Positions 3 through 55,135 of a stretch of DNA of 64,000 bases are shown here, one piece after another. The translations under genes and the position numbers were made by a program. The stretch's first letter is position 1. Each line of letters starts with the position of its first letter. The stretch lies in the NCBI GenBank assembly GCA_024408235.1, contig JAKSVF010000001.1, forward strand, positions 29,417-93,416. Direction: 5' to 3'. This DNA comes from Bacilli bacterium (GTDB taxonomy: Bacteria; Bacillota_I; Bacilli_A; RFN20; CAG-826). The notes under the pieces are model-generated. The model had not been told where the DNA came from, did no database searches, and saw nothing but the letters and a program-made list of their open reading frames with translations.

Positions 3-3000
3 ATAGCCGACTCTGGAATGGATGCATTTAAGAACGCTAACAAGGATTACATCTACACAGCCAACAAAGATGAACTGAGATATGAAAATAGACAGCTCAT
101 CAGAATTCTTGAAGCTGCAGTCGATCCTGTCTATGGAGTCATCGCTAATGATGGTGCCGTTAAGGAAATCAAGATCTCAGACGTTGACGCTTACTACTTA
201 GTGAACCCTCTCCTCAAGTCATTGGCAGAATCTCACGTCTTTAACTCCTTGTCCGATAAGCAGATTGCGGAAGGTGTTAGTATGACCGCGTTGGAGAAAG
301 AATTCTCATCGCTTTTAGGTTCGGCTTCCCTCTTTGAAAGCAAGACGAATGCAGACAAAGCGGTTTTAAGCGTGACAAAAGGCGTTACATCGTTTGAACA
401 TCGTGCAAATCTTTGGGACGATGAGATTGATCAGGTCACCAATGTCCTTACATCAATCCAGGATTTAGACATCGATCTCAATAATTTCTCGTTCGACAGC
501 ATCTTCCCAGATGGCAAGGATGAAGCGAAGAGACAAAAGCTCGAGAATATGCTTTTGAGCATCAATAACTCTCAGATTCTCCACTCAGTTCTCCCATACC
601 AAATCAATAAATCTGTTGATACCTTGGCGGATAGCCTTGGTTCATCATTCACACTCACGAATGTTAACGCCTACTACACCGGATATGATTCTGATGGTTT
701 AGCAAATAGATATGATGATGCGGAAATCGTTAATTTCTCATATATCATCCAAGATGGCTTAACAATGGGCGAACTTGATATGTCTTCGATGCATGGCGAC
801 CAGATCGATACTGTCATGTCATTGTTGAAGAGAATCGCTTCGAGCAACGTTTTCAACACAATCAAGGAGCCTGCATCAACCTATGAGATGACCGCTTTCG
901 AAAGCTTGTATTATCAGGCTATCGAACAAGCTAATGTTTTCGATGACATCAATCAGTTAAAAGCGTCTATTTTCCACGTAACAAACGGAGCTAGAACTGA
1001 CTTATCCGTCCTTGGTTCGCGCGCAGCTTCTTGGGAAAATGAAATCGATACCCTTCACCAGGTCTTCCTCGACTTTGATGGCCTCGGATTCCAAATTGAT
1101 AATTTCGATTACAATTCTCTCGATGAGTCCAGGGATTCAGAGCTTGCTACATTACTTGATGATGTGGACAAATCAATCACAATGCATTCAATGCTTCCTT
1201 TGAAGATCGAGGCTGCAATTGATGAAGTCGATGATTCGCTAGGAGAAGGTGTTTCTCTTGGAGTTGCTAACACAAGATACAAAGGCACATCTATTTTATC
1301 TTATGGTGATGGTCTTACTGTTGAGGTTCCAAATGCTTATGACGATTACGATGAATGTGAACACATCGCCCGAATCGTAAATAGAGGCTTGCATATGGGC
1401 TCGGTGGATTTAAGCGCCGGATCAACGGATACCAAATTCATCGACTTACTTATTGAGATGGGTCACTCTAACGTATTCAACACCTTGCCTGATAATAATT
1501 ACGGAATTGACCTCACTTCATTAGAAACTGTTTTCTCAACATCGGTTAAAAAATCGGGTATCTATTCTGAGAAGGAAGCTCAGGCATCCGCTTTGCTCGT
1601 TACCAACAAATCCTCGGACCTCGCTTTGAGAGGTGATTTATGGGAAGAGGAACTCGCCTATGTCCGTGCAACAATCAATGCGTTATCGGAAATCGATTTA
1701 GATATCGAGCACTTTGATTTATCAGCTCTTTTCACAGGCGGTCCAGAAGATGAAACGACTAGACAGAAAATGGTCACCCTCCTTAATTCATTAAGCGATT
1801 CTAAGACACTTCATTCTGTTGCCCCTATTAAACTTAGAACAACAATTGACTCCTACAAGAGTTCTTTGGCCGCTGGTCAGGTTTCTTTTGACAACGCAAA
1901 CTACGATTACAACGGCAAAGTGATATATGAGTTCGATGATACCTCATTAGGAAATGTCACATTACCAAACGCCTACGGATACGACGAAAACGAGGCTTTG
2001 TCATACATCATCATGGAGTCTTCAAATCTTCCAGATCAGAATCTTGCTGATTTAACATCCATCGACAGAACTCCATATATATCCCTATTAAAGAGACTTT
2101 CAGCAAGCCACGTTTTCAATACGCTTGAAGAAGGACTTACGCATTCTCCAAATCTCCTAACAGCATTCGAAAACACATATGTAAGCATTCTTGATGAAGG
2201 CAACGTTTATGAGCATTATGCAGAGCAAGAGCTTGAAGTTGATAGAATTGCCACATTTGAAGCAACTAAGGGCGTCTCCAATTTCGACAATATAAAAGCG
2301 ATTTGGGATGATGAACTCGATTTAGTCGAACAGATCATCACCGATTATCAGACATGCGGATTTACAATGACATCCATCAACATTGCAAACCTCTTCCCGG
2401 CATCTGCAACAGAAGAAGAAGCGGAACTCAGCAGAATGAACTTACAGGAATTGATGGATGACGTAAACTCGTCACTCACCCTCCATTCAACCCTCCATCG
2501 CACGGTCAATGAAGCTATTGATAAAGTCAGTGACAAGATGGGTGGAGATTCGATGGACAACGCAAATGTCTACTTCACCGGTTACTCGGTACCTGATAAA
2601 AAGCTTGGTAACTACTACACCGACGAGGAAGTTGAGAAACTCTCCTATATTGTTAAAGGCTGCATGAGAATGCCTGATGTCGACAAGAGCGACATTGGCT
2701 CAATCGATGCATCTAAAGTTACGGATTTGCTTGCTCATTTAGCAACAAGCCAAGTATTCAACTCACTTAAGGATGGAGAGCCATTTACCGCATTTGATAA
2801 CGCCTATGCCACCCTCATGACAACGGATGGCTTAAACGATGTCTATTACCATGCTCCAAACCCGGTTGATAAAGACGCTATTTATTCAACTTCAGCCGAT
2901 AAGGCTAAGGTTGTTGCAAGGTCAACATGGACACCTCTTACTTTATCCATTGATATCGATACATATGATGTTTCAAATATCAACGGTAACACTGGTTCAT

Positions 3001-5114
3001 TGCAGTACGTCTTAGAGTACTTTGTTGATCCGTCTAACTCAGACGTCATGGATTCACTTAATGGCGAATTCTCGTCTTTAACTGGAGATAAGATCTATGA
3101 TTCACTTACTAGGTTGAACTCGTGCGAATTAACAAAGGACATGGTGCCTAACATCATCGATAAGACAATTAACGATCCATCTTTCTCCCTAGGCTCAATC
3201 AACATCAAGAGAGCAAATCCGTTCTATTGTTACAATGGATTATGGGGTAATAAGTATGATGACGATGAAATCGAATGCATCGCAAACATCATAACCGCTA
3301 ATAACAACATGAAGGATAGTGGTGGACATAGCATCTTCGCTAACCTCGGCTCGGCTACTATTACTCATTCAACGGTTGTCGAGTTAAAGAACTTGATGGA
3401 TGCAATGAACGAAAGCCAGGTATTCCATTTGTCAGGTGCTAGATCAGGCGCTGAATTCTTTGATTCAACAGTCGCTGCTTGGAAAGAGCCATTGACCGCA
3501 TTTGAACAGATCTTAGGAACTATCTATGAAGAGTCCAACCTCGCTTCTCTAGCATATAACTCAACTAGAGATGCATATGCTTCTTGGAGCGAGAAACTCT
3601 CTGCTCGAATGGGACACTTCCGCGATGGAAACCTCGAATCTCTCCACGGCGCAGTCGCCAATAGATATGAAATCGAAGTCGAAGCAATCTGCAACTTGAT
3701 TGATGTTGCTATCGACCTTGACCTATTGTCATCAGGTTTGAGCCTCGGTTCATTTGAACTCGGTTCATTCTCACCTGAACAAGTCAGATTCTTATCTAAC
3801 GCTCTCAACATCGTTGACATGGTTTCAGACGCTCTTCCAAATAAGATAGATTCATTCGTTAAGACAACAGGCGTTGATAAATACAATGCCGTTGATGTAA
3901 TGGGCGAAAAACTCGATATTGCCAATTACTTCCTCTCTCAAGAACAGATGAGGGATGGCGCTATCGATTCTATCTACACCTTCTCAAATTCAATTTACGA
4001 ACCGGCTGAATATGATACTTTAGGCAATAAGACCAAGGATGCTAAGTACACTACATTCACAGGTCCTGATGCAGTGAACATGTCTGAGTGGATTCTTGGC
4101 GAAGGAAAGTTCTCCTCAATATTGAAATTCATTGATGAGCCAAACGGTTTCTATGCGTCATCGCATTACACGGCTACCCCATTAGACGGTTCAAGCCTTG
4201 CCGCCATCAATGCTGCAACAGACACCTATGACTTCACAGCGAGAGATGCATTCTTCTATAACATCTCCTCATTCAGCGTTGCTGGAGAAGTTCTTAACCT
4301 CGGTTCATACCTCGGAGCGGGTGACTCGTTGCTACTTGATCTTAAGGGCTCTAGAGACGCGTTTGACCACGTCGAGAAAACTGACGCATCTTACTTAAGC
4401 GAAGAAATGTCCATCCACTCAACAATGATCGATCTTGGAACAATATACGTTGCCCTTAATGCATCGTCATCACTTGGAACTCTTCCAACTCACTTAGCTG
4501 AGTTTGAAATGTTAGCAAGCGACCTCGCATATTCAAGCGTTGAATCATTGTTCACATACTTCGGCACAAATAGCTCATCTCTATCCGGAAGATATGCTTC
4601 AGGACTTTTAGAAGAACCTGTTCATAAAGCTAACTCCTACATCAACGGCAACTCTTACTTCACCGCTCTGTTCGACGCTACAGGCCTCCCATACCCATCA
4701 AGCTATATGGATGGCGCCTCGGTTAGAACCCGTTCGTCCTACGATGAAGGATCTACATTAAGCACATACTCCATCTACTCAGATAACGGCTCGGATTTAA
4801 GAAGCGAAGATGTAAAGGATGCCTACATGAGCATGCTTAGAATCGTGAAGGAAATCGGCATTGGCGCATTAACGTCAAGCCACACAATTGATACCGTTTC
4901 CCTCAACTCTGCGTTCTCAACAATCGACTCCCTCGTATCAAATCCACGAGTCAGCGCATTAACAAAGTTATTCTATCTCTCATCCACATATGACTATCTC
5001 CTCAACAGAGGCGCATTCCACGGCGAAGTCCTCCCATTCCTGAGTGAGATTGATGTGCCAAATCCGTTCGATTCGGCCTTCACTTATAGTGGATTATCCT
5101 CATTCATCGCTTAA
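3..5114 (+). CDS. giant acidic modular repeat protein, C-terminal >=1698 aa (probably 5'-truncated by the window edge)
   Basis: The frame is open from nt 3 with no stop before the first ATG at 18, and no SD precedes that ATG. The stop is TAA at 5112-5114. The protein is D/E/S/T-rich and K/R-poor. It contains six divergent tandem modules (see repeat feature). I see no LPXTG, TM helix or known catalytic motif in the visible part. Confidence 0.85.
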   Translation: MADSGMDAFKNANKDYIYTANKDELRYENRQLIRILEAAVDPVYGVIANDGAVKEIKISDVDAYYLVNPLLKSLAESHVFNSLSDKQIAEGVSMTALEKEFSSLLGSASLFESKTNADKAVLSVTKGVTSFEHRANLWDDEIDQVTNVLTSIQDLDIDLNNFSFDSIFPDGKDEAKRQKLENMLLSINNSQILHSVLPYQINKSVDTLADSLGSSFTLTNVNAYYTGYDSDGLANRYDDAEIVNFSYIIQDGLTMGELDMSSMHGDQIDTVMSLLKRIASSNVFNTIKEPASTYEMTAFESLYYQAIEQANVFDDINQLKASIFHVTNGARTDLSVLGSRAASWENEIDTLHQVFLDFDGLGFQIDNFDYNSLDESRDSELATLLDDVDKSITMHSMLPLKIEAAIDEVDDSLGEGVSLGVANTRYKGTSILSYGDGLTVEVPNAYDDYDECEHIARIVNRGLHMGSVDLSAGSTDTKFIDLLIEMGHSNVFNTLPDNNYGIDLTSLETVFSTSVKKSGIYSEKEAQASALLVTNKSSDLALRGDLWEEELAYVRATINALSEIDLDIEHFDLSALFTGGPEDETTRQKMVTLLNSLSDSKTLHSVAPIKLRTTIDSYKSSLAAGQVSFDNANYDYNGKVIYEFDDTSLGNVTLPNAYGYDENEALSYIIMESSNLPDQNLADLTSIDRTPYISLLKRLSASHVFNTLEEGLTHSPNLLTAFENTYVSILDEGNVYEHYAEQELEVDRIATFEATKGVSNFDNIKAIWDDELDLVEQIITDYQTCGFTMTSINIANLFPASATEEEAELSRMNLQELMDDVNSSLTLHSTLHRTVNEAIDKVSDKMGGDSMDNANVYFTGYSVPDKKLGNYYTDEEVEKLSYIVKGCMRMPDVDKSDIGSIDASKVTDLLAHLATSQVFNSLKDGEPFTAFDNAYATLMTTDGLNDVYYHAPNPVDKDAIYSTSADKAKVVARSTWTPLTLSIDIDTYDVSNINGNTGSLQYVLEYFVDPSNSDVMDSLNGEFSSLTGDKIYDSLTRLNSCELTKDMVPNIIDKTINDPSFSLGSINIKRANPFYCYNGLWGNKYDDDEIECIANIITANNNMKDSGGHSIFANLGSATITHSTVVELKNLMDAMNESQVFHLSGARSGAEFFDSTVAAWKEPLTAFEQILGTIYEESNLASLAYNSTRDAYASWSEKLSARMGHFRDGNLESLHGAVANRYEIEVEAICNLIDVAIDLDLLSSGLSLGSFELGSFSPEQVRFLSNALNIVDMVSDALPNKIDSFVKTTGVDKYNAVDVMGEKLDIANYFLSQEQMRDGAIDSIYTFSNSIYEPAEYDTLGNKTKDAKYTTFTGPDAVNMSEWILGEGKFSSILKFIDEPNGFYASSHYTATPLDGSSLAAINAATDTYDFTARDAFFYNISSFSVAGEVLNLGSYLGAGDSLLLDLKGSRDAFDHVEKTDASYLSEEMSIHSTMIDLGTIYVALNASSSLGTLPTHLAEFEMLASDLAYSSVESLFTYFGTNSSSLSGRYASGLLEEPVHKANSYINGNSYFTALFDATGLPYPSSYMDGASVRTRSSYDEGSTLSTYSIYSDNGSDLRSEDVKDAYMSMLRIVKEIGIGALTSSHTIDTVSLNSAFSTIDSLVSNPRVSALTKLFYLSSTYDYLLNRGAFHGEVLPFLSEIDVPNPFDSAFTYSGLSSFIA
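18..3872 (+). repeat. six divergent tandem protein-level modules (~204-221 aa, ~610-665 nt period) inside the giant ORF
   Basis: The anchor motif LL+xxAxS[HNQ]VF[NH] recurs at nt 231, 843, 1467, 2106, 2748 and 3411 (aa 72, 276, 484, 697, 911, 1132). Each module also carries TAFE/TAFD, W[DE][DEN]E[IL]D, a DxxNF/HF stretch, [IT][LM]HSxxP...ID...SLG and N[AV]xxY..G..YDDxE. The repeats are visible at protein level only. The nucleotide copies are diverged. Confidence 0.8.
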
Positions 5115-5115
5115 T

Positions 5116-5727
5116 ATGACCCAATTACTACCATATCAGGAATACATAAGCGAAATTAAAATCCTAGGATCACGCTTTATCGCCGTATTGGAGCCGATTC
5201 TAGAGGAGAGTGAGATAGATGCTCATCTCGAACGTTTAAAGGCCTTATATCCAAAAGCAACGCATTATTGCTACGCTTCAAGATTCGGCCCAAGCGAAAG
5301 AATGAGCGATGATGGTGAACCATCACGAAGTGCCGGCATGCCACTTCTAACGATTCTCAGGCAACATGGCATCACTCAAGCCCTCATCCTCGTCATCAGA
5401 TATTTTGGTGGGACAAAGCTAGGATTGCCACGTCTCACTAGAACATATAGAGATGCGGCGGAGGATGTAATTGCAAACGCGAAGTTCGCAACCATCATCG
5501 AGGGTTCCACGCAAAACCTTACGATGAGCTATGCCAATTACGAGCATGTAAAGAAACTCGTGGCAAAAACTAACCTCGAGATGTACGGAGAAATATATTC
5601 CGAGGATGTGACCATTACCCTAAAAGGTGAGAATGAGTCGCTATTAAAATTCGTTTCTTCCCTTCCTTACGAGATCATCAGGGGAGAAATCCAGTCAGTC
5701 AAATTATTAAAGGAGGCAGAACAATGA
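5116..5727 (+). CDS. yigZ: YigZ/IMPACT (UPF0029) family protein
   Basis: Matches the family pattern SRFIAVLEP...HxCYA...DDGEPSRSAGMPLL...VIRYFGGTKLG..L. The ATG at 5116 lies 1 nt after the giant gene stop. The upstream 24 codons of the tracked ORF overlap that gene and are discounted. Confidence 0.8.
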   Translation: MTQLLPYQEYISEIKILGSRFIAVLEPILEESEIDAHLERLKALYPKATHYCYASRFGPSERMSDDGEPSRSAGMPLLTILRQHGITQALILVIRYFGGTKLGLPRLTRTYRDAAEDVIANAKFATIIEGSTQNLTMSYANYEHVKKLVAKTNLEMYGEIYSEDVTITLKGENESLLKFVSSLPYEIIRGEIQSVKLLKEAEQ

Positions 5728-7013
5728 TCCCTTCAAACGAATACGCAGCTAGAAGACAAAGAATTCTTTCCGTCATGGAAGAAGACAGCATCATGGTCCT
5801 TTTCTCAGGTGTTGAGAAGATGTCTAGCGCAGATGAAACATACCCATTTGAGGTTAACCGCAATTTCTATTACCTAACTGGTATCGACCAGCCAGACTCA
5901 AGTCTTATCTTGGTCAACACGGATGGCGAAATAAGAGAATTCTTATTCGTCTCGCCATTTGATCCTGTTAAGGAGAAATGGTATGGCAGGAGATTAACAC
6001 TCCAGGAAGCCGCAAAAATATCCGGAGTCTCAAATGCTCAGGTGAACACAATTGTCATGGATAAGGTTGCCGGTATTCTTGATCCAACTCTCGCTCAGTA
6101 TGGTGAAGTCAGCCATATTTATTTAGACCTCGAGCCTGAAATCAAGATTGCCGAAGAAACAACGACCAGAGATTATAGAGACACAATCAAACACACCTTC
6201 CCTAACGTTGAAGTGCTTGATGCATATCCATTGATAACCACTCTCAGATTAAGAAAATCCAACAAGGAAATCGAAGAATTGAGAAGCGCTATCCGCACAA
6301 CAAAACTCGGCGTTTATTCCGTCATGAACGCAATGAAGGAAGGCAAGAGAGAATTTGAGATGGCAGACTTGTTCCTCCACACAGTAAATGACGACAACTG
6401 CTATCAGGGCCTCGCTTTCCCAACCATCATGGCTGCAGGCAAAAACGCTACATGCTTACACTATAGAACCCTCCAGGGAGTTATGCATGATGGCGATCTT
6501 CTCCTTATGGATTTAGGAGCTAGAAACGGTTACTACTGTGCTGATGTTTCTCGTACAGTCCCAGTATCTGGCAAATTCACCAAAGAGCAGAAAGAGATTT
6601 ACAACATCGTCTTAGGCGCTAATAAAATGGTCGCTAAGATGCTTAAGCCTGGAGTGACAATCGAAGAGCTTCAACAGGCGACAATCATGTACTTGGCTGA
6701 TGAGTGCTTGGCAAAAGGCTACATCAAGAAGAAAGAGGACATCATGGAATACTATTACCACGGTGTTTCCCATTTGATCGGTCTTGATACGCATGACGCT
6801 TACTTCGCTCCTAATTCAAGGGAATCGAAGAAATTGAAACTAGAGCCTGGAATGATCATCTCCAATGAGCCTGGCTTATATATGGCCGATAGAGGAATTG
6901 GCATCCGCATCGAAGATGACTTACTCGTCACCGAAGAAGGCTGTGAAGTTTTAACTGCTGAAATCATCAAAGAAGCCGATGACATCGAAGCGTATTTAGC
7001 CACAAAAAGATAA
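5724..7013 (+). CDS. Xaa-Pro aminopeptidase (M24B family)
   Basis: Shows M24 metal-ligand motifs DLGARNGYYCADVSRT, HGVSHLIGLDTHD, SNEPGLY and IRIEDD. An AAAGGAGG SD precedes the start. The start overlaps the yigZ stop in an ATGA junction. Confidence 0.85.
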   Translation: MIPSNEYAARRQRILSVMEEDSIMVLFSGVEKMSSADETYPFEVNRNFYYLTGIDQPDSSLILVNTDGEIREFLFVSPFDPVKEKWYGRRLTLQEAAKISGVSNAQVNTIVMDKVAGILDPTLAQYGEVSHIYLDLEPEIKIAEETTTRDYRDTIKHTFPNVEVLDAYPLITTLRLRKSNKEIEELRSAIRTTKLGVYSVMNAMKEGKREFEMADLFLHTVNDDNCYQGLAFPTIMAAGKNATCLHYRTLQGVMHDGDLLLMDLGARNGYYCADVSRTVPVSGKFTKEQKEIYNIVLGANKMVAKMLKPGVTIEELQQATIMYLADECLAKGYIKKKEDIMEYYYHGVSHLIGLDTHDAYFAPNSRESKKLKLEPGMIISNEPGLYMADRGIGIRIEDDLLVTEEGCEVLTAEIIKEADDIEAYLATKR

Positions 7014-7022
7014 TTAGAGACG

Positions 7023-7050
7023 AAGCTCACAATAATGTGGGCTTTTTCTT
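7023..7050 (+). terminator. rho-independent terminator after the aminopeptidase gene
   Basis: The stem AAGCTCAC/GTGGGCTT has 8 bp including one G-U pair. The loop is AATAAT and a TTTTTCTTTTT run follows. Confidence 0.65.
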
Positions 7051-17650: not shown

Positions 17651-18139
17651 ATGCATTGTACGATTATGATGCAGTGGTATAAGAAACTTACGTCAAATAA
17701 GAAATGCCTACTTCTGTTAGGCGTTTTTGATGCGTTTGTTTTCGTTTGCTTAATCCCATTCGCCTTTTTCTCAATGGATAGCGGATATTGGCTTGGAACC
17801 CTTATGCTCGGATGGCTTTTAGGTTCAGTTGCTCAGATCATCGCTTATGTCACAATCGTTTTTACTAGCAAGATGCTTACAACGCCTAATGGCACGACCA
17901 CAACCGGTACTCTTATGGGTGCTGGTGGTTTCTTCATTAGGTACTTTTTGTATGCGGCAGTTCTTACTTTATCGGCCATCTGTACGTTTAAACCGGAATG
18001 GCTTTTAGGCTTTGATAAATTTAATGTATTTACATGCGGCGCAGCGCTCGTTGTGCTCTCATTCTTTGTCATGATTTTTAAAGTCATTGAAATGAGGGGA
18101 GAAGCTGACCCGGTTAAGAAACAGGAGGAGTCGAACTAA
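17651..18139 (+). CDS. small integral membrane protein, AtpI-like position upstream of atpB (start uncertain)
   Basis: This hydrophobic ORF has about 4 predicted TM segments and sits immediately 5' of atpB with a 1-nt overlap. The ATG at 17651 abuts the candidate -10 hexamer, so the true start may be 17666/17669 (MMQWYKK). Confidence 0.55.
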   Translation: MHCTIMMQWYKKLTSNKKCLLLLGVFDAFVFVCLIPFAFFSMDSGYWLGTLMLGWLLGSVAQIIAYVTIVFTSKMLTTPNGTTTTGTLMGAGGFFIRYFLYAAVLTLSAICTFKPEWLLGFDKFNVFTCGAALVVLSFFVMIFKVIEMRGEADPVKKQEESN

Positions 18140-25712: not shown

Positions 25713-26537
25713 TTACTTGTAGCCCTTAATAAGCGATCTAGCAGCGTCTAGGTCGTTTTTTACATTAACAGTGCCGTCTTCACATATCAGTAGAGGTTCG
25801 TATTCATTTAAAGAATATGCATCGAGAACTGATTGTTTGTTCGAATCGTCTAGCAAATCGAAATCAATGATGTCGACCCTCTTTTTTGATTTTTTGATTT
25901 CTGGGTATAACTCATTTTTATAGAAGTCAACTGAATCGTTATTGGTCGAATCTAATAAGTACTTAAGTGTTTTCTCATCTGTTATTGAGAAGGTTCTTGT
26001 GTGATATATCTCTGTAAGGGTAACGAATCTTTTGACTTCAACAGAGAGCCTAGAATATGAAACCGCTCCACCGACTATTTCAAAGGCTTTTTCAGAGTTT
26101 AGTCCAAGAACAGAAGGAGTTGCTGCGGAGATTAGCTCTTCATCTCCCTCAGCATATCCATAATACTCGTTCAAAGCGTCAACTTGTTTATGATATTCCT
26201 GGTACGTCTCATATGTTTTACCAGTATTCTCTATTACTCCGTACGCGATTGAGTTGGCTTTGCAGAAACCAACAAAAGTGTCTTTGAATCTAATGCAATG
26301 ACCACATGTCGTTTGCGTTAAGACAACTAGCATCCCAATACCCAAATCAAGTTGAGGTTTAATCTCGTCCCAGTTTTTGTAGTAGGCGTGATTGGAATAC
26401 GCAAGAGTGTCGTCTTCAAACGAAAGATTTACTTCCTCGGTCCTATCGACAAAAAAAGTTTTGCTGCCAACCCCATCTCCGCACGAGGTAAGGAGCAATG
26501 GCAAAATAGAAATCTCTAAGACAACTCTTTTTTTCAT
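25713..26537 (-). CDS. thioredoxin-like lipoprotein with CGHC active-site motif
   Basis: The signal peptide carries the lipobox LLTSC (Cys19). The C78-G-H-C81 motif lies at nt 26295-26306 in the context VVLTQTTCGHCIRFKD. The length is 274 aa. Confidence 0.7.
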   Translation of the reverse strand: MKKRVVLEISILPLLLTSCGDGVGSKTFFVDRTEEVNLSFEDDTLAYSNHAYYKNWDEIKPQLDLGIGMLVVLTQTTCGHCIRFKDTFVGFCKANSIAYGVIENTGKTYETYQEYHKQVDALNEYYGYAEGDEELISAATPSVLGLNSEKAFEIVGGAVSYSRLSVEVKRFVTLTEIYHTRTFSITDEKTLKYLLDSTNNDSVDFYKNELYPEIKKSKKRVDIIDFDLLDDSNKQSVLDAYSLNEYEPLLICEDGTVNVKNDLDAARSLIKGYK

Positions 26538-31633: not shown

Positions 31634-31656
31634 CACATATGAATCGAGGATTCAAT

Positions 31657-32166
31657 ATGATCACCATTTCTTTATTAGGCTTAGACCAATACGTGGCTGG
31701 CCACTACAGCAAGACGCACACAGAAAATCTCGCTCAGCTTTTCGAAGTTGATGAAGACGCAGTATCTTTCTATGCGCCAAATTCCATCATTATTCACAAT
31801 GGAGTAGAACAGACTTCATGGAACACCGAAGTCAGAGTTCACCTTCCTACAAAGTTCGCACCACTTGAAGAGAAGGTTGCCGATTACCTTATCCAGACCC
31901 TTAAGGAAATCACAATTAACATGAACATAACATTCGAGTATTACGAAGAGGCTAGCCACTACGAATACCAGAATGATGAATACCCTAAGTTCATCAGAGC
32001 CGACAACATCGTCGACATGGATGACCCATACGCAGAAGAAAACGAAGAGGAATACGATGGACCAACTCCAGAGCCTTACCTCGGAAATATATTCGCCGGC
32101 AAAGAGGAAGAGTTAGACGCTAAATATAGCGCTGATGAAGAATACCTCACTGAAGAAGATAAATAA
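31657..32166 (+). CDS. hypothetical protein with strongly acidic C-terminal tail
   Basis: The ATG at 31657 is preceded by a GAGGA SD at 6-nt spacing. The in-frame ATG at 31639 lies only 5 nt after the -10 hexamer, so the alternative start is 31639. The tail is rich in E/D/Y (EENEEEYDGP...EEYLTEEDK). Confidence 0.6.
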   Translation: MITISLLGLDQYVAGHYSKTHTENLAQLFEVDEDAVSFYAPNSIIIHNGVEQTSWNTEVRVHLPTKFAPLEEKVADYLIQTLKEITINMNITFEYYEEASHYEYQNDEYPKFIRADNIVDMDDPYAEENEEEYDGPTPEPYLGNIFAGKEEELDAKYSADEEYLTEEDK

Positions 32167-32179
32167 TGGGGAGAATAGT

Positions 32180-33499
32180 ATGCAGACATTAGATATTTGT
32201 GAAGCAGTATTAACAGACGTTCTTGCCAATGACGTCTCATTCGCTGACGCTCTCAAAAAGGTCTTTAAATCAAGCGTTGACCTCCGCCCTCAGAGAAATA
32301 CAGTCGCATCTTTGGTTGGATGTGAACTTCGTCACCATCTTCTCTTCTCTTATCTCTTGAAGCCAATTGAAGTTTTGACTGATGAAGAAAAGAGACTTGT
32401 CTCTTTATGTCTTGCTGAGTATTACTTCTATCAGAGACTCAACAAAGATGAAGTCGATAGCCACCTCCTTGCAAAACTTGGAGAAGAAAAAATTGAACTC
32501 CTCAAACCGTTATTCGATAAATCGGGTAAGCCTGAGGAATACATCCCAGCTGAGATATCAAAATCAAGCAACAAGTACTTATCATTAAGATACAACACCC
32601 CAGAATGGGTTCTTAAGATCATTGAGCATTATGGTTTCGGAACAACGTACAAAGTATTAAGAAAAAATGCTCAGCAGAGAATCTCGACCGTCCGTGTTAG
32701 AGAAGGCTTTGATAAGAATACAATAGATCCTAACGCTTTCAAAGGCTCACCTGTGCCAGGTATTTATTACTATCAGGGCAAGGAATCCCTAAGAAAACTA
32801 GAAGCCGCCAAAGAAGGCAAGATCTTCAATGAAAGACTAGCGACTAAATTTATCTTAGATAAATACAGAGTCAGCGATCCTTCAGAACTTTTCATCTTTG
32901 ATGGAAATGGCGATGGTTCAATCTTCAAAGAAGCAATCGAAACCTACGGCACAAAGATCGGAATGAACTTTGGAGTCTATTCCGAAGACAAGTATGCAGA
33001 TGTCGCTAGAATGATTAGAACCGAAGGCTTAAAGAACATTAACTACTTTGCAGCTGATCCAACATTCCTTGATGCAGCTATCTCTCGCCCACAGGATTTG
33101 GTAATCGTATCGCCTAAATCCACAAACTTTGATTTGATTAGAGAACAGCCAGATTATCTTCTTCACTTCAAGAAGAGCGAAATGGATGAACTCTTTAGAA
33201 AAGAGAAAGAAGCGCTTGAAGGCGTTTCTAAGGTTGTCGCAGATGATGGACTCCTCATCTACATGGTTTACACAATCAGCAAGAAAGAAGGCCACCAGAC
33301 GATCTCCGAATTCTTGCTCAACCACACAGAATTCAAGTTCGTTAAAGAAGAACAGCTCTTCCCTCAGGATGAACTCGACACAGCAATGTACTACGCTGTT
33401 CTCAAAAAAGAAGAGAATGCTATCATTCTTGATAACCCAGCATCATTGGCTAACCCATTAGAGGGAACGGCCTTCGCTATGTCAGCAAAGGAAAGATAG
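32180..33499 (+). CDS. RsmB/Sun-like protein (NusB-like N-domain plus degenerate m5C RNA methyltransferase fold)
   Basis: The position between priA and rlmN is that of rsmB. The fold blocks align to RsmB: FIFDGNGDGS (motif I region), LVIVSPKSTNFDLIREQPD (motif IV region) and GLLIYMVYTISKKEG (motif VI region). Neither catalytic Cys is present. The start at 32180 has a GGGGA SD. Confidence 0.6.
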   Translation: MQTLDICEAVLTDVLANDVSFADALKKVFKSSVDLRPQRNTVASLVGCELRHHLLFSYLLKPIEVLTDEEKRLVSLCLAEYYFYQRLNKDEVDSHLLAKLGEEKIELLKPLFDKSGKPEEYIPAEISKSSNKYLSLRYNTPEWVLKIIEHYGFGTTYKVLRKNAQQRISTVRVREGFDKNTIDPNAFKGSPVPGIYYYQGKESLRKLEAAKEGKIFNERLATKFILDKYRVSDPSELFIFDGNGDGSIFKEAIETYGTKIGMNFGVYSEDKYADVARMIRTEGLKNINYFAADPTFLDAAISRPQDLVIVSPKSTNFDLIREQPDYLLHFKKSEMDELFRKEKEALEGVSKVVADDGLLIYMVYTISKKEGHQTISEFLLNHTEFKFVKEEQLFPQDELDTAMYYAVLKKEENAIILDNPASLANPLEGTAFAMSAKER

Positions 33500-33503
33500 A
33501 ATC

Positions 33504-34553
33504 ATGAAGAAGAATCTCTTTGGTTTTTCGCTTCCTGCTTTAGAAGAAGAAATGACAAGCCGTGGAGAAACTCGTTATAGAGCAAGACAGCTTTATGAGT
33601 GGATTTACGTTAAAAAAGTCTATGACTTCTCGTTAATGACAGATATATCCAAGAATTTCAGAAAAGTTCTTGAGGAAGAATATTGCTTGGACTTGCCAAC
33701 AATTTTCACACGCCAAAATGCCGCTGACGGAACCGTCAAGTTATTACTTGAGATGGAAGATCATTCAAAGGTTGAGACGGTCCTTATGAGATATGATTAC
33801 GGCAATGTCATCTGCGTATCGTCTCAAGTCGGATGCTCAATGGCTTGTGCTTTTTGCGCCTCCGGAATTCTAGCCAAGACAAGAAACCTTACTGCATCGG
33901 AAATGGTAGGGGAAGTCATTCTTATGAACCAGTTACTTGCTGAAGAGGGTGAGAATATCTCCCATATCGTTGTAATGGGAACCGGTGAGCCATTTGACAA
34001 TTACGATAACGTAATGTCATTTGTGAGAGTCATGAATGAGCAAAGGGGCCTTGCGATTGGTGCAAGACACATAACCGTCTCCACATGCGGCCTTGTCGAT
34101 GGCATCAGGAAATACGCTAACGAGGGAATTCAAATCAATCTTGCGATTTCTCTCCATGCCCCAAATGATGAAATCAGAAATCAGATAATGCCAATTTCAA
34201 GAAAATACAACATGGATGAGCTTCTCGATGCAGTTAAATACTATGTTGAAACAGCAGGGCGCAGAGTCACTTTTGAATATATCATGATCAAAGGTCTTAA
34301 CGACTCAATTGAGAATGCTGATGAACTTGCTAGAAGACTCAGGGGAATTTTCTGTTACGTTAACCTCATTCCGCTGAATCCAGTTAAAGAAAAACCGTTT
34401 GAAAGAAGCGAAAATGTCCACGCTTTCAATAGGCGTTTAAACGATAAAGGTGTCAACTGTACTGTAAGAAAAGAGTTCGGTACAGATATTGATGCCGCTT
34501 GTGGACAACTCAGAGTTAAATATGAGAGGAAGGGGAAGAACTATGGCAACTAA
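33504..34553 (+). CDS. rlmN: 23S rRNA/tRNA m2A methyltransferase, radical SAM
   Basis: Shows YRARQLYEWIY, the radical-SAM cluster motif GCSMACAFCASG, GEPFDNYDNV and the C-terminal Cys in DIDAACGQL. Confidence 0.93.
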   Translation: MKKNLFGFSLPALEEEMTSRGETRYRARQLYEWIYVKKVYDFSLMTDISKNFRKVLEEEYCLDLPTIFTRQNAADGTVKLLLEMEDHSKVETVLMRYDYGNVICVSSQVGCSMACAFCASGILAKTRNLTASEMVGEVILMNQLLAEEGENISHIVVMGTGEPFDNYDNVMSFVRVMNEQRGLAIGARHITVSTCGLVDGIRKYANEGIQINLAISLHAPNDEIRNQIMPISRKYNMDELLDAVKYYVETAGRRVTFEYIMIKGLNDSIENADELARRLRGIFCYVNLIPLNPVKEKPFERSENVHAFNRRLNDKGVNCTVRKEFGTDIDAACGQLRVKYERKGKNYGN

Positions 34554-35295
34554 ATACCGTGGAAGCTATGGATATAAAGTCCATCCAGGCAAAGTTCGCA
34601 CAAACAACGAAGACCAGGCGTCCGTTTTGATGAATCCAGATGGTGAAATCCTTCTTGTCGTTTGCGATGGAATGGGCGGATCACAGAAAGGTGATGTTGC
34701 CTCAAGAATGGCGATCGACATCATAACCAAATCATTCCCCTCAAAGAAAAAACATGTTTTTGCGAGCGCTGATAAGGCTTGGCTTACAAAAATTGCTAAG
34801 AAGGCAAATTCCGCTATCTACGAAACAGCCGATAAGAATCCTAGGTATAAAGGTATGGGAACTACGCTTGTTGCGGCCCTTATCTCTAATAAGAGGATGA
34901 TTGTTGTCTCCATTGGCGATAGCCGTTGCTATTGTTTAAAAGACGGTGAAATTAAACAACTGACAGAGGATCAGACCTATGTTCAGATGTTAATCAACAC
35001 CGGAAAGATCACTCCAGAAGAAGCCCTTACTCATCCAAAGAGACACGTTCTTTTGAACGCGATGGGCATCTATCCGTCATTATCAATCGACATCAAACAA
35101 TATAAATACCGTGGGGAAACAATTTTATTATGCACTGATGGTTTATATAACCAGGTTCCAGCGGATGAGATAAAGGCAATTCTCTCAAGCGATGAGAGAG
35201 TTGACCAGAAACCAATATCACTAATCATCGCCGCTAACGCACACGGCGGAAGCGACAACATTGGAGTTGCTGTTTGGGAGACTGAAGCACAATGA
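34543..35295 (+). CDS. PP2C-family Ser/Thr protein phosphatase
   Basis: Shows NEDQ, VCDGMGG, GMGTT, LCTDGL and GGSDNIG. The start at 34543 (MATKYRG) follows a purine-rich SD and overlaps the rlmN end. Confidence 0.9.
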   Translation: MATKYRGSYGYKVHPGKVRTNNEDQASVLMNPDGEILLVVCDGMGGSQKGDVASRMAIDIITKSFPSKKKHVFASADKAWLTKIAKKANSAIYETADKNPRYKGMGTTLVAALISNKRMIVVSIGDSRCYCLKDGEIKQLTEDQTYVQMLINTGKITPEEALTHPKRHVLLNAMGIYPSLSIDIKQYKYRGETILLCTDGLYNQVPADEIKAILSSDERVDQKPISLIIAANAHGGSDNIGVAVWETEAQ

Positions 35296-36173
35296 TAGAG
35301 ATCGGAAGTAAAATAGACGGTCGCTATCGTGTAACCGGTCGTATCGCTCACGGCGGTATGGCAGATGTCTACGAGGGCTTTGATTCACTATCCCATCGCT
35401 ATGTCGCAATCAAGGTCATGCGAGTCGATTGCATGGCTGACCCAGAAAATATCAAGCGTTTTAGAAAAGAGTGCGAGGCATGCGCTTGTTTTAATTCGCC
35501 TCATATCGTCCGCATCTATGGTCAGGGCACTGTTGATGGTGGACGCCCTTACATGATTAACGAGTATGTTGAGGGCAGAACTTTAAGAGATAAATTGAAC
35601 ATGGTTGAAAACCATTGTTTAAGCGCTAGAGAAGCATGTGAATTCATGGTGCAGCTTTGCCTTGGAATGCAATACGTCCATGATCATGGAGTTGTTCATC
35701 GTGACATCAAGCCGGATAACATGTTCTACGCCGCAGACGGCTCTGTCAAAATCACCGACTTCGGAATTTCCAGTCATGTCGGCGAAAAAGCAAATAGAGA
35801 AGCCATTCCTGGAACGCTATTCTATACGGCTCCAGAAATCATCACAGGAGGAGACCCTCTCATCCAATCTGACATTTTTTCGATGGGTGTAGTTTTCTAT
35901 GAGATGCTAACGGGCAAACTCCCTTTCAGCGGGGAAGATAAGAAAGCTGTCGTAAGCGCAATCGTTAAAAAGAGCGCTCCAATTCCATCAGATGAGTATT
36001 CTTCGATTCCTAAAGCGGTTGATAGAATCGTCATTAAATGCCTTCGCAAGAGACATCAAGAGAGATATCAGAACTGCAATCAACTTAGAAGAGCGATCGA
36101 ATCTGTCCTTAAGGACAAGAATGCTTTTAAGGAAAAGAAATCACTCTTATCAAAGATATTTGGATTCAAATAA
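35292..36173 (+). CDS. Ser/Thr protein kinase, catalytic domain only (293 aa)
   Basis: Hanks motifs are present: GGMADVY, AIKV, HRDIKPDN, DFGIS and APE. There is no TM segment or PASTA repeat after the kinase domain. The start shares an ATGA overlap with the phosphatase gene. Confidence 0.9.
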   Translation: MIEIGSKIDGRYRVTGRIAHGGMADVYEGFDSLSHRYVAIKVMRVDCMADPENIKRFRKECEACACFNSPHIVRIYGQGTVDGGRPYMINEYVEGRTLRDKLNMVENHCLSAREACEFMVQLCLGMQYVHDHGVVHRDIKPDNMFYAADGSVKITDFGISSHVGEKANREAIPGTLFYTAPEIITGGDPLIQSDIFSMGVVFYEMLTGKLPFSGEDKKAVVSAIVKKSAPIPSDEYSSIPKAVDRIVIKCLRKRHQERYQNCNQLRRAIESVLKDKNAFKEKKSLLSKIFGFK

Positions 36174-36176
36174 ACA

Positions 36177-36842
36177 ATGGGAAATTATAAGAACAAAACA
36201 ACATATATAGCCCCATCTATTCTCGCTGCAGATCCGAATAGAATCGAAGACGAAATAGCGTTGATAAAGACTTCGAAGGCTGCATTCGTCCATATAGACA
36301 TAATGGATGGAAAATTCGTTAGAGCGACGACTTTTAATGATGATTTCGTAAAAAGGGTAATCGACGTTTCTGATCGTCTAGTCAAGGATGTCCATATAAT
36401 GGTGGAAGAGCCGTGGATTATCGGTCCTAAGTTTGCAAAGATGGGTGCATCTATTGTCACGTTCCACTATGAGGCGTGCGGAGATGACCAGGTCGTTTTT
36501 AAGACTATCAAAGCCATAAGAGACGCCGGCTCTAAAGTCGGAATATCAATCAAGCCTAATACGCCAGTAGAAGTATTGAATCCTTTTCTTGACCAAATCG
36601 ACCTTGTTCTTATTATGACGGTAGAACCTGGCGCTGGTGGCCAATCGTTCATGGCAGATATGATGGTGAAAGTTAAGAAACTCTCATCAATTGATGGCCG
36701 TAAGTTTTTGATTGAGTGCGATGGTGGAATAAAAGACACCACCGTCTCAATCGTTAAAGAAGCTGGAGCCGACGTTTTGGTCGCTGGTTCATATTTATTC
36801 GGTCATAAAGATTTTAAAGAAAGAGTGGAGACCCTTTTATAA
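36177..36842 (+). CDS. rpe: ribulose-phosphate 3-epimerase
   Basis: Shows APSILAAD, HIDIMDG.FV, MTVEPGAGGQSF and DGGI. Confidence 0.93.
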   Translation: MGNYKNKTTYIAPSILAADPNRIEDEIALIKTSKAAFVHIDIMDGKFVRATTFNDDFVKRVIDVSDRLVKDVHIMVEEPWIIGPKFAKMGASIVTFHYEACGDDQVVFKTIKAIRDAGSKVGISIKPNTPVEVLNPFLDQIDLVLIMTVEPGAGGQSFMADMMVKVKKLSSIDGRKFLIECDGGIKDTTVSIVKEAGADVLVAGSYLFGHKDFKERVETLL

Positions 36843-37516
36843 TGCCTATTTCATATTTCATCTTATTTACTGCCGTGCCTGCTATCATGTTAGCGGCCTT
36901 CCTAATCACCGTTTTCTTCGGTTACAAAAAAGAAGGAGAGGAATACTCCCTCAAAGCTTATTTGACTTATGAGGCCTTCGAGAGAATGAATCCGGCTACA
37001 AGGGTTATAGCGCGCATACTATATTTTATATATTTAGCCTCGCTACTTCCTTTCTATGCCTATGTCATTAAATATAGTGGTGGATATAACGATCAACTCG
37101 TATTATTCTCCGTCTTCAACTTATTGGCAGGAGTTGTAGCAGTTGGTATAAGCGTTGCCCTTACGTATGTAAAAGCAACATTGCCTCAGCCTCATCTATT
37201 CCTTGCGATAGGTCATGGGCTGGTGGTTGTCGTAAATGCGTTCACAATGTCTAGCGTATTGAATCTCATCAGAACGGCTAACATGGTAAGTTCAAGATAT
37301 GACATATTCATATTGATCGTCATCGTTCTCCTTATACTCATAGCGACATTTGTCATCCTCTTATTCGTGAAGAGGGATGTCTATTCTTGGGAATATGTAG
37401 AGAAAGAAGGTAAGAGAAGTTTCTTTGCCTTAGCGTTCACGGAATGGTTAGTAGTATTCTTCAATCTTGCCGTCTACTTAATAAGCGTCATCTCATTATT
37501 TGTTATCAATTGCTAA
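36842..37516 (+). CDS. hypothetical polytopic membrane protein
   Basis: A 224-aa protein with about 6 hydrophobic segments. It shares a 1-nt overlap with rpe. No family is recognised. Confidence 0.55.
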   Translation: MPISYFILFTAVPAIMLAAFLITVFFGYKKEGEEYSLKAYLTYEAFERMNPATRVIARILYFIYLASLLPFYAYVIKYSGGYNDQLVLFSVFNLLAGVVAVGISVALTYVKATLPQPHLFLAIGHGLVVVVNAFTMSSVLNLIRTANMVSSRYDIFILIVIVLLILIATFVILLFVKRDVYSWEYVEKEGKRSFFALAFTEWLVVFFNLAVYLISVISLFVINC

Positions 37517-37973: not shown

Positions 37974-39104
37974 ATGAGCACCAAATTGGCAGCTATGATT
38001 CTCGCAGGCGGAAAGGGCACAAGATTGTTGGCTTTAACGAAGAAAGTCGCGAAGCCAGCTGTTTCTTATGGAGGAAAGTATCGCATTATCGACTTCCCAC
38101 TTTCAAACTGCGCAAACACAGGAATCACCTGTGTATCTGTTTTGACCCAATATGAGTCAAGCGAACTTAACACCTATGTCGGAAACGGTGAGAAGTGGGG
38201 ATTGAATGGAGTTAGATCAATCACCTCTGTTTTAACACCTAAACAGACAGACGAAGGCAGCAACTGGTATAGAGGCACCGCAGACGCTATCTATCAGAAC
38301 ATCGACTGGCTTGATGGAGTCAACCCTGAGTATGTTTTAATCCTTTCGGGTGACCACATCTATTCATGCACATATAACGGCATGCTTAAGAAACACATTG
38401 AGAATAAGGCGGACTGCACGATTGCAGTTTATGAGGTTCCATGGGCAGAAGCTCCACGTTTCGGAATCCTTGTAACAGACGACAAAGATAATATCGTCGA
38501 CTTCCAAGAGAAGCCAAAAAACCCAGTAAGCAACCTTGCTTCTATGGGTATCTATATCTTCACATACAAGACATTAAGAGCAGCTCTTTTAGCTGATGCA
38601 GCAGACCCAAATTCAGAACACGACTTCGGCAAGAACATCATCCCAACAATGATGGCACAGAAGAAAAAGATGGTTGCTTACACTTATTCAGGATACTGGA
38701 AAGATGTCGGTACAGTCTCTTCGTTGCATGAGGCAAATATGGACTTACTTTTATCCGGAGACCCAAACATCAACCTTTATAAGGTCCAGGGTGATAACAA
38801 GATTTATTCCGAAGACAATCACTCGCTTCCACAGTACATTGGACCTGATGCGATCGTTAAGGATTCGCTCGTTAACCAAGGCGCATCAATCTTAGGCAAC
38901 ATCGATCACTGTGTTGTTTCAAGCGATGCAACAGTTGAAGCGGGTGCGAGCTGCAAGAACTGCGTCATTATGAATGGCGCCGTCATTAAATCAGGCGTCA
39001 ACGCAGCGAATGCGATCATCGGCCAGAACACCCTTGTCGATGAAGATGTAAACGGCGAGCCAGGAAACATCGAACTTGTCGTTAATGGAAAGGCAGGTAA
39101 ATAA
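37974..39104 (+). CDS. glgC: glucose-1-phosphate adenylyltransferase
   Basis: Shows LAGGKGTRL, FGGKYRIIDF-like YGGKYRIIDFPLSN, WYRGTADA, LSGDHIY and FGI..VD. The C-terminal region resembles a left-handed beta-helix. Confidence 0.93.
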   Translation: MSTKLAAMILAGGKGTRLLALTKKVAKPAVSYGGKYRIIDFPLSNCANTGITCVSVLTQYESSELNTYVGNGEKWGLNGVRSITSVLTPKQTDEGSNWYRGTADAIYQNIDWLDGVNPEYVLILSGDHIYSCTYNGMLKKHIENKADCTIAVYEVPWAEAPRFGILVTDDKDNIVDFQEKPKNPVSNLASMGIYIFTYKTLRAALLADAADPNSEHDFGKNIIPTMMAQKKKMVAYTYSGYWKDVGTVSSLHEANMDLLLSGDPNINLYKVQGDNKIYSEDNHSLPQYIGPDAIVKDSLVNQGASILGNIDHCVVSSDATVEAGASCKNCVIMNGAVIKSGVNAANAIIGQNTLVDEDVNGEPGNIELVVNGKAGK

Positions 39105-39105
39105 C

Positions 39106-40224
39106 ATGAAAGGCGTATTAGGTATTCTCGATTGCCATAACTCATGCTCACTTGGCGAATTGACTATGGATCGTCCATTGGCATCCGTAAGCTTCCTCGG
39201 AAGATACGCGATTTGCGATTTTCCTCTTTCCAATTTCTGCAATTCAGGAATTGATAACGTCGGAATCTTAGTTAAAGAGCACCAGAGATCCATCTTGAAA
39301 CACCTTGGCAACTCCATGTCATGGGTCAATAACACAAAGATGGGCCACATCAACGTTTTCTACAATGAAAAAGGACAGGTTAACCCTTCATACAACACTG
39401 ACTTAGCTAACTTGAAGGAAAACGATTGGGTCATTATTACTTCAGGCTGTAAATACATCGTTATTCAGTCCGCAGACGTAATCACAAACACCGACCTCAC
39501 ACCATTCATCGAAGAACATATTGAAAGAGGTGAGAAGATCACCACTCTCTATCATGAAATCGATGATGCAGACAAACAGTGGTTTGGCGGTAACACATAC
39601 GAGATTGATAGCGATGGTTGCCTTATCTCAACAAAGCCAAACGATGGCTCTGAGAAAAAGGCAAAAGTCGCGCTCGGCACTTGGATCATTAATAGAGATG
39701 CGTTACAGACAATCTTTGATGAATCCGCAAAAGTATCAGCTTCATGGGGATTAAAGGAAATGATGGGATACCTTGCTGAGAATGGCATCTTCAACATCCA
39801 CTGCGTTAAGCACGAAGGATATGTTAGAAGAATGGATTCCCTCCAGCATTATGTCGACTACTCATTCGAACTTCTAAATAGAGATGTCGCAAAACAGCTC
39901 TTCGTTCCTGAAAGACCAATTTACACAACTACACACGATACGGCTCCAGCCCTCTATGGAGTTGATTCTAAAGTTGCTAACTCATTCGTTGCAAACGGAT
40001 GCGTTGTTGAAGGAGAAGTTGAGAATTCAATCATCTGCCGTGATGTTAAAGTCGGCAAAGGAGCAAAGGTCAGCAACTCCATCCTCTTATCCAACGTTTG
40101 GGTCTTAGACGGCGCTAACGTTGATAATGTCATCATCGATAAATATTCAACAGTCCTTGAGAAACACACCATCGCAGGAGACAAGGCTAACCTTATCTAC
40201 ATCAGACAAGGAGCCAAGATCTAA
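39106..40224 (+). CDS. glgD: glycogen biosynthesis protein GlgD (non-catalytic ADP-glucose pyrophosphorylase subunit)
   Basis: This is a GlgC paralog that lacks the GGxGxRL motif (it has GILDCHNS...LGELT). It retains FLGRYAICDFPLSN. Its position between glgC and glgA matches the Firmicutes arrangement. Confidence 0.8.
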   Translation: MKGVLGILDCHNSCSLGELTMDRPLASVSFLGRYAICDFPLSNFCNSGIDNVGILVKEHQRSILKHLGNSMSWVNNTKMGHINVFYNEKGQVNPSYNTDLANLKENDWVIITSGCKYIVIQSADVITNTDLTPFIEEHIERGEKITTLYHEIDDADKQWFGGNTYEIDSDGCLISTKPNDGSEKKAKVALGTWIINRDALQTIFDESAKVSASWGLKEMMGYLAENGIFNIHCVKHEGYVRRMDSLQHYVDYSFELLNRDVAKQLFVPERPIYTTTHDTAPALYGVDSKVANSFVANGCVVEGEVENSIICRDVKVGKGAKVSNSILLSNVWVLDGANVDNVIIDKYSTVLEKHTIAGDKANLIYIRQGAKI

Positions 40225-53484: not shown

Positions 53485-53492
53485 CACGAATT

Positions 53493-53517
53493 GACGCGCC
53501 TAACCGACGCGTTTTTC
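53493..53517 (+). terminator. weak candidate terminator after the LacI-family gene
   Basis: A GC-rich 5-6 bp stem (G)ACGCG/CGCGT(T) with a 9-nt loop is followed by TTTTTC. Confidence 0.45.
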
Positions 53518-53533
53518 TTTTATTTATAAACCT

Positions 53534-53562
53534 TTGATATTTATATCGCGTAAGTCTAGAAT
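53534..53562 (+). promoter_or_regulatory. candidate promoter of the GPH-GH31-transaldolase operon
   Basis: TTGATA (53534-53539), a 17-nt spacer and TAGAAT (53557-53562). An AGGAGG SD lies at 53600-53605. Confidence 0.55.
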
Positions 53563-53612
53563 AATAATTAATTAAGCAACTTAACCAATAAATCTAATTA
53601 GGAGGATTTTTT

Positions 53613-55133: not shown

Positions 55134-55135
55134 AA

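Follow-up and report, generated by a model that had tools for sequence, protein, structure and literature searches.

A giant modular protein with a predicted membrane anchor in a lineage of uncultured Bacilli

The stretch of DNA analysed here (64,000 nucleotides from assembly GCA_024408235.1 of a Bacilli bacterium, positions 29,417 to 93,416 of contig JAKSVF010000001.1; hereafter the window) opens inside a gene that encodes a giant acidic protein built of repeated modules. Frame 3 of the forward strand is uninterrupted between nt 3 and a TAA stop codon at 5112–5114, a run of 1,703 codons, or of the 1,698 codons reported in the initial annotation when counting starts from the ATG at nt 18. That annotation, made from the window's letters, also held that the true gene is longer than its visible part. 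This proved correct: a search of 5.8e9 proteins returned nine homologues of 2,231–2,848 aa, including one of 2,783 aa (P0001) that is 98% identical across the entire visible part of the window protein. A 14-kb contig (L001) carries the P0001 gene, including its upstream part, intact and without frameshift. The first 1,080 codons of the gene precede the window, such that window residue numbers equal P0001 residue numbers minus 1080, and positions 3–5114 encode the last 1,703 residues, which form the distal 61% of a ~2,783-aa protein. This visible part has an isoelectric point (pI) of 4.30 and a net charge of −147.

The visible protein begins with the end of one module and a linker (3..155, assigned from module-profile matches on P0001 at residues 940–1118) and continues with six tandem modules, each carrying the anchor motif S[HNQ]VF[NH]. 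These motifs stand at residues 77, 281, 489, 702, 916 and 1138, corresponding to nt 231, 843, 1467, 2106, 2748 and 3414. They are spaced 204–222 aa apart, and an estimate from residue frequencies predicts ~0.004 chance matches per 1,703 residues. Five of the six coordinates are exactly those first given, while the last had been placed at nt 3411, a slip of 3 nt. Modules were delimited by cutting the sequence at the anchor motifs, and the resulting pieces were then compared. All six lie on the forward strand. M1 (156..767, aa 52–255; SHVFN at nt 231), M2 (768..1391, aa 256–463; SNVFN at nt 843), M3 (1392..2030, aa 464–676; SNVFN at nt 1467) and M4 (2031..2672, aa 677–890; SHVFN at nt 2106) align pairwise by BLASTP over roughly 200 aa at ~28–31% identity (E 8e-12 to 5e-31). 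M5 (2673..3338, aa 891–1112; SQVFN at nt 2748) is divergent, with an insertion in its middle part, and is matched at E 1.7e-12 by a profile built from M1–M4 alone. The most divergent copy, M6 (3339..3974, aa 1113–1324; SQVFH at nt 3414), is missed by the M1–M4 profile but joins at the second iteration (E 5e-11) and is matched by the final profile at E 3.6e-34; on these profile grounds M6 is a genuine module copy, far more divergent than M1–M5. The BLASTP and profile matches thus bear out all six of the ~210-aa tandem modules originally described.

Two to three more modules lie 5′ of the window, where the iterated profile matches P0001 at residues 673–725 (partial), 807–939 and 940–1118. The full protein is therefore estimated to carry at least eight modules, about nine in all; the earlier count of at least six holds for the window and is too low for the whole protein. 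Among 50 complete members of the family there are 4–10 modules per protein, spanning roughly residues 200–350 to 2000–2400. Near-invariant module positions are S26, F29 and N30 of the SxVFN anchor motif, T44 (TxFE), W92, N179 (AN..Y) and E200. The secondary motifs that had been ascribed to each module do exist, but each occurs in just three or four modules of the window: TAFE, [LM]HSxxP and YDD in three, and W-[DE]-x-E-[IL]-x in four. At the DNA level, no tandem repeat at the module period was found in the window gene. The module duplication is therefore old, as had been proposed, and recent slippage as the source of the modules can be dismissed.

Structure prediction gives the module a confident all-helical fold. 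The AlphaFold2 (AF2) model of M4, built with 31 aligned modules, has a predicted local distance difference test score (pLDDT) of 87.9 and a predicted template modelling score (pTM) of 0.84, and it comprises seven helices and small beta bridges. In a model of M2, M3 and M4 together (635 aa; pLDDT 88.0, pTM 0.82), the seven helices recur in each module, with a short hairpin near the module end; the MAFFT rows of the three-module alignment were aligned by orthology and not by module register, and the model is confident all the same. Because the pTM is high over three modules, the packing between them appears to be fixed, which suggests a continuous rigid body.

Neither the sequence nor the predicted fold of the module matched known relatives. 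Pfam gave nothing at threshold, the best match being Spectrin_Anc-1_2 (17.5 bits against a cut-off of 28, E 0.005), and 0 families were found in NCBIfam (for P0001, P0005 and P0006) and in PHROGs and PADLOC. The module profile reached a best E of 0.16 against PDB sequences, and Foldseek comparison of both models with solved structures returned no match at E ≤ 0.001 (TM-score ≤ 0.26). The module would accordingly constitute a new domain family, represented by no curated family and no solved fold, in agreement with the undescribed repeat without recognisable domain of the initial annotation; the single-module modelling advised there had the same outcome, a confident model of M4 without a neighbour among solved structures. 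Signals of wall-associated proteins are also missing, as previously stated: neither an LPXTG motif with transmembrane helix and basic tail nor choline-binding repeats were detected at the C-terminus or in the Pfam scan. The same holds for FIVAR and GA matches in Pfam and for a C-terminal transmembrane helix.

The modules are followed by a non-repetitive C-terminal domain rich in Ser, Thr and Tyr (3975..5111, forward strand, aa 1325–1703), which ends in a conserved tail (...PNPFDSAFTYSGLSSFIA). The C-terminus of the window protein reads ...FTYSGLSSFIA, with no hydrophobic segment there. A region of this kind had been recognised from the start, and its 379 residues are indeed 31% S+T+Y. The possibility that it represents a degenerate module was rejected, since hhalign against the module profile gave a probability of 0.2%. 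jackhmmer found the domain in 33 of 156 representatives, always in terminal position, and the same query against 50 locus-derived proteins matched the four closest relatives alone. The domain is common to one sub-clade, and terminal domains differ among sub-clades. A short aromatic motif, F-[STVCY]-[FY], is more widespread, occurring inside the last 35 residues (nt ~5010–5111 in the window) of 36 of the 50 complete members compared with 4% of random 35-aa windows, the 50 sequences not being phylogenetically independent. It persists where the remaining C-terminal region cannot be aligned between clades, and it may function as a cap or as a tail for recognition.

At the other end of the protein, outside the window, lies a predicted membrane anchor. 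Hydrophobic segments are confined to the first ~205 aa in P0001 and in the 50 complete members, and the full protein starts with four predicted transmembrane helices (TM1–TM4). The reported absence of transmembrane helices therefore applies to the visible part and not to the full protein. Since the latter begins with four such helices, it would be membrane-anchored; of the 'secreted or surface-associated' location first suggested, the surface remains the best reading, whereas free secretion does not. The charge distribution, determined on an alignment of 21 diverse N-termini, alternates along the chain. An N-terminal tail of ~17 aa has a mean net charge of −1.4, the 13-aa loop after TM1 has +3.1, the 62-aa loop between TM2 and TM3 has −4.2, the 20-aa loop before the last transmembrane helix has +7.6 (8.3 K/R), and the first ~40 aa past this helix have −3.9. 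By the positive-inside rule, this bias points to an N-out, four-helix, C-out topology. The remaining ~2,580 residues, the presumed ectodomain, have a pI of 4.25 and a net charge of −231. Only two columns of the membrane-anchor alignment are invariant, P199 and N205, both located where TM4 reaches its outer end (PLTSxVN). PF02674 (Colicin_V/CvpA) matches 4 of the 21 N-terminal domains, with a best E of 5e-4, and leaves P0001 itself unmatched; this weak likeness to CvpA is a lead and not a sign of membership. No stand-alone paralogue of the membrane-anchor domain was found in 60 loci or in the window.

Compared with the copy in L001, the window gene has a ratio of nonsynonymous to synonymous substitutions (dN/dS) of 0.078 at a dS of 0.094, and it is therefore under purifying selection. 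The ratio rises along the protein, from 0.05 in M1–M4 to 0.10 in M5–M6 and 0.16 in the terminal domain. A conservation scan with P0001 as query against 46 distant members showed the same gradient: 85–100% of these members can be aligned over residues 1–1000, 20–30% over residues 1400–2400 and <10% over the last 380 residues. Because alignability falls toward the C-terminus, the window holds the fast-evolving distal part of the protein. A pseudogene is excluded by the intact full-length orthologues and the dN/dS of 0.08. One damaged copy was observed, in the metagenome-assembled genome (MAG) UBA1744 (L004, 9965–18354), where the orthologue is split into a 397-aa N-terminal open reading frame (ORF) and a 2,454-aa ORF that overlap in different frames. 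This split, which accounts for the lack of a membrane anchor in P0003, is seen only in UBA1744 and is either an assembly-error frameshift or a pseudogene.

The family was delimited with the module profile, which matched 179 proteins at E ≤ 1e-3 (151 at E ≤ 1e-10) among 1.84e9 cluster representatives. Nearly all of the 179 are 1,400–3,000 aa long and contain 4–11 matched stretches. One representative, P0123, is far longer (4,489 aa); it has 11 matched stretches, the best module lying at residues 4058–4135, and may be an expanded or fused variant. The N-terminal membrane anchor is present in 127 of 134 long representatives and the others are N-truncated; the module therefore exists in this one architecture only. 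In one-genome-per-species contigs, the gene occurs in 60 species with GC contents of 29–60%. The wider search for the module that had been advised thus yielded 179 representatives and 60 species genomes. Members include Coprobacillus sp. CAG:826, two Ca. Alloenteromonas species and many 'Bacilli bacterium' MAGs from gut, rumen, freshwater and bioreactor; these organism names are database labels, several of which are clearly wrong (e.g., 'Staphylococcus epidermidis' and 'Roseburia hominis' MAGs). The giant protein defines a clade of uncultured small-genome Bacilli, which is probably the order RFN20.

CAG-826, the lineage given for the window, is a family name within the order RFN20. Among RFN20 genomes, mraY is found in 14% and murG in 5%, and TGA is a stop codon (PMC7301438). 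The order has also been reported to lack sortases, with 'reduced surface protein expression' predicted (PMC10868615). Most RFN20 members are predicted to be without peptidoglycan and sortases. The window uses TGA as stop, which fits RFN20. It also contains, at 34489–36173, a PP2C phosphatase gene followed by a gene for a PrkC-like Ser/Thr kinase of 293 aa. The PrkC kinases of walled Firmicutes typically carry a transmembrane segment and PASTA repeats, for which the window kinase has no room: it matches Pfam kinase-domain families only, across residues 12–260. A PrkC-like kinase this short fits a peptidoglycan-deficient lineage, although neither it nor the use of TGA is proof of where the window belongs taxonomically.

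The surroundings of the giant gene are conserved as well. Nearly all loci with enough flank share one order, of which the upstream half was read in L001 and the downstream half in the window: the minus strand carries genes for a thioredoxin, a TraX-family protein and a CPBP/Rce1-like protease, followed on the plus strand by the giant gene, (YigZ), an M24 Xaa-Pro peptidase and, in most cases, GlpK. The CPBP gene starts at most ~100 bp from the giant start, on the opposite strand, in essentially every locus, across 22–66% identity; in L001 the two genes are separated by 41 bp. The divergent CPBP–TraX–thioredoxin operon occupies L001 103–3923 and has the same position in L002–L059, and in close relatives it is followed by a diacylglycerol kinase and an acyltransferase. 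The CPBP/TraX neighbour is the sole hint of a possible dedicated partner of the giant protein, the support being adjacency alone. A promoter-like element (TTGATT, 18 nt, CATAAT) lies at L001 3929–3967 and ends 7 nt upstream of the giant ATG. No Shine-Dalgarno sequence is visible ahead of that ATG in L001, and the giant mRNA may be leaderless.

Downstream, a YigZ/IMPACT-N family gene (5116..5727, forward strand; Pfam UPF0029, E 2.4e-30) begins one base past the giant stop, at the distance originally noted. It is overlapped by 4 nt by an M24 Xaa-Pro aminopeptidase gene (5724..7013, forward strand; Pfam Peptidase_M24 and AMP_N). The first strong intrinsic-terminator-like hairpin after the giant gene, with 10 pairs and a T run, lies at 7022..7045 on the forward strand. 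As no terminator precedes the end of the peptidase gene, co-transcription of the giant, YigZ and M24 peptidase genes is plausible. YigZ next to the giant gene went undetected in one sub-clade, and in Escherichia coli K-12 (L062, 4031161–4033106) pepQ and yigZ are adjacent, with overlapping stop and start. Gene order thus indicates that YigZ and the M24 Xaa-Pro peptidase are an old conserved pair and that the conserved partner of YigZ is the peptidase and not the giant protein. The co-transcription suggested at the outset therefore stands as plausible while telling little about the function of the giant protein.

A phage or defence origin was rejected, since there are no PHROG or PADLOC matches and the neighbours are housekeeping genes. 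Neither tRNA genes nor Rfam families were found in the 64-kb window. Carbohydrate genes of the window lie at 37974–41663, 52483–57097 and 61685–63349; they include genes of glycogen synthesis (two NTP-transferase/GlgC-GlgD-like genes and a starch-synthase-type GlgA), a LacI regulator, an MFS_2 sugar transporter, a GH31 glycosidase and an alpha-amylase-family enzyme, and they point to a carbohydrate-storing, sugar-fermenting lifestyle. ORFs of 162–454 aa without a Pfam match at E ≤ 1e-5 are found at 17651–18139, 25713–26537 (minus strand), 31639–33499, 36842–37516, 49347–49925 and 58620–59936.

The uniform architecture, fixed locus, vertical distribution, purifying selection, outside-facing polyanionic array and change from conserved base to variable tip lead us to favour, with somewhat better than even confidence, a lineage-specific, membrane-rooted, rigid polyanionic surface fibril or coat whose distal end meets the environment; both its topology and its function are inferred. 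Under this proposal, a short acidic N-terminal tail would lie outside the cell, followed by four transmembrane helices whose two short, strongly basic loops would face the cytoplasm. The fourth helix would act as a signal-anchor, such that the remaining ~2,580 residues would be exported and stay tethered to the membrane. This ectodomain, with ~230 net negative charges, would consist of about nine seven-helix modules of ~210 aa, arranged head to tail and packed into one elongated rigid body. At its end, the chain would carry a terminal domain that varies between clades and closes with a short, conserved aromatic tail. The result would be a long polyanionic fibril or coat projecting from the membrane of cells with little or no wall. 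Its conserved membrane-proximal half would serve as a stalk, and the faster-evolving distal modules and terminal domain would meet the environment, where they may act as a spacer, in protection, in cation binding and/or in attachment. Several points weigh against this proposal. The topology derives from one source, the positive-inside rule, and the third hydrophobic stretch, at 37 aa, could instead comprise two helices, in which case the scheme would fail. The 'rigid rod' likewise derives from a single quantity, the pTM of the models. The analysis identified no motif indicative of binding, enzymatic activity or cation binding. For a classical adhesin, such strong purifying selection and a fixed position would be unusual, yet neither feature is in itself proof of a structural role. 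A wall is predicted for some RFN20 families, which weakens the link to wall loss.

The gradient of conservation could also be that of a classical adhesin, in which the helical array is a stalk and the distal modules and C-terminal domain bind host or particle surfaces such as mucus, plant fibre or other cells, as in Ebh/Embp. Evolution is indeed much faster in the distal half and terminal domain than in the membrane-proximal half, species differ in their number of modules (4 to 11), terminal domains differ among sub-clades and family members come from gut and rumen. However, MAGs from freshwater and bioreactors contain the family as well, no recognisable lectin, immunoglobulin or beta-solenoid domain was found by Pfam, and the gene occupies one locus with fixed neighbours in every genome examined, with no sign of mobility or variability. 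Its dN/dS is 0.08, and even the terminal domain reaches only 0.16. A fixed-position, single-locus core gene under purifying selection is no less compatible with a structural surface component than with an adhesin. Adhesion, which overlaps with the surface fibril and does not exclude it, is considered rather unlikely as the principal role, although it is the most serious competitor.

Placing the repeats inside the cell is harder to reconcile with the data. They would then form a membrane-tethered scaffold or cytoskeletal element that shapes or divides a wall-less cell, comparable to the giant cytoskeletal proteins of Mollicutes. Rods of all-helical repeats, spectrin among them, usually reside in the cytoplasm, and the sub-threshold Pfam match of the module is to a spectrin repeat; moreover, the protein has no cleavable signal peptide, two helices in the 37-aa segment would invert the C-terminal side, and a conserved position with purifying selection suits a housekeeping role. 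Against this, the basic loop directly before the last transmembrane helix and the acidic stretch after it are the signature of an N-in/C-out signal-anchor, the weak similarity to CvpA fits a four-helix anchor, and an arrangement with five helices would misplace one of two loops, the first basic one or the acidic one of 62 aa, relative to the membrane. A cytoplasmic array is therefore judged improbable. Even less credence is given to the idea that the giant protein is a substrate or partner of the CPBP (Rce1-like) protease and the TraX-family protein, being cut near the end of TM4 (PLTSxVN) or at its C-terminal tail, and released or modified to give a shed fibre as the mature product. The nearness of the CPBP start in essentially every locus, with TraX and thioredoxin behind it, would agree with such processing, as would the invariance of P199 and N205 and the frequent F-x-[FY] tail. 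Adjacency is nevertheless the only link between these proteins, and, because synteny extends over the entire neighbourhood, it could be due to inheritance alone. In bacteria, CPBP genes often lie beside unrelated genes, and we know of no CPBP substrate motif usable here.

Giant repeat proteins on bacterial surfaces are an already known kind, and the novelty of the present one lies in its module, its four-helix N-terminal membrane anchor and its status as a conserved clade marker. Ebh/Embp of Staphylococcus are very large surface proteins of Bacilli with FIVAR-GA helical-bundle repeats of ~126 aa, a YSIRK signal peptide and a C-terminal transmembrane helix. As predicted for the giant protein, they are membrane-tethered and have a long all-helical module array that would form a surface rod; the giant protein differs in having no FIVAR, GA or other Pfam match, a ~210-aa seven-helix module without a fold match in the PDB and an anchor of four N-terminal transmembrane helices. 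This anchor recalls that of MarP of Mycobacterium tuberculosis, in which a CvpA-type four-helix anchor presents a protease outside the cell. With CvpA (PF02674)/MarP the giant protein shares a membrane domain of four helices at the N-terminus, a basic loop rich in Arg and Gly that follows TM1 and a C-terminal part that would likewise be extracytoplasmic, whereas the acidic 62-aa TM2–TM3 loop is extra and a 2,500-aa repeat array is appended in place of a protease. Spectrin-repeat rods, including nesprins, are similar as elongated scaffolds of tandem helical-bundle modules with a transmembrane tether. They are eukaryotic and cytoplasmic, and the giant module, with seven helices and a hairpin, is twice the size of a spectrin repeat (Foldseek TM-score of 0.17 to plectin spectrin repeats). 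The last comparison is with Giant1–5 of Apilactobacillus kunkeei (PMC12863079), which are likewise multi-thousand-residue, extracellular, lineage-restricted proteins of small-genome Bacilli that are predicted to be elongated. Giant1–4 are described with N-terminal beta-solenoid binding domains, in a five-gene cluster subject to recombination and exchange between genera (PMC12863079). The giant protein of the window differs in being all-helical, in having a four-transmembrane anchor and one locus per genome examined, and in keeping the same syntenic position in all genomes examined, a pattern indicative of vertical inheritance.

The guts of humans, chickens and ruminants commonly harbour RFN20 and related uncultured Bacilli, which stand between the walled Firmicutes and the wall-less Mollicutes. 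The giant gene is probably the largest in their genomes of 1.5–2 Mb, where it takes up roughly 0.4–0.5% of coding capacity. Its size, its single locus across the clade and the strong purifying selection make the giant protein an obvious candidate for the dominant surface structure of these cells. A far-reaching version of this idea, to which only slight probability is assigned, would make it the main element of a proteinaceous coat with a new helical fold that replaces peptidoglycan and teichoic acids in wall-deficient RFN20-type Bacilli and is matured by CPBP and TraX as a dedicated surface-assembly system. Should the protein be only a generic spacer, the result would be a useful annotation and no surprise. 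The analysis adds a ~210-aa helical domain family without a solved or curated relative, and it provides a gene that can serve as a lineage marker and a protein that is a concrete target for cryo-electron tomography, proteomics and antibody-based enrichment of these bacteria.

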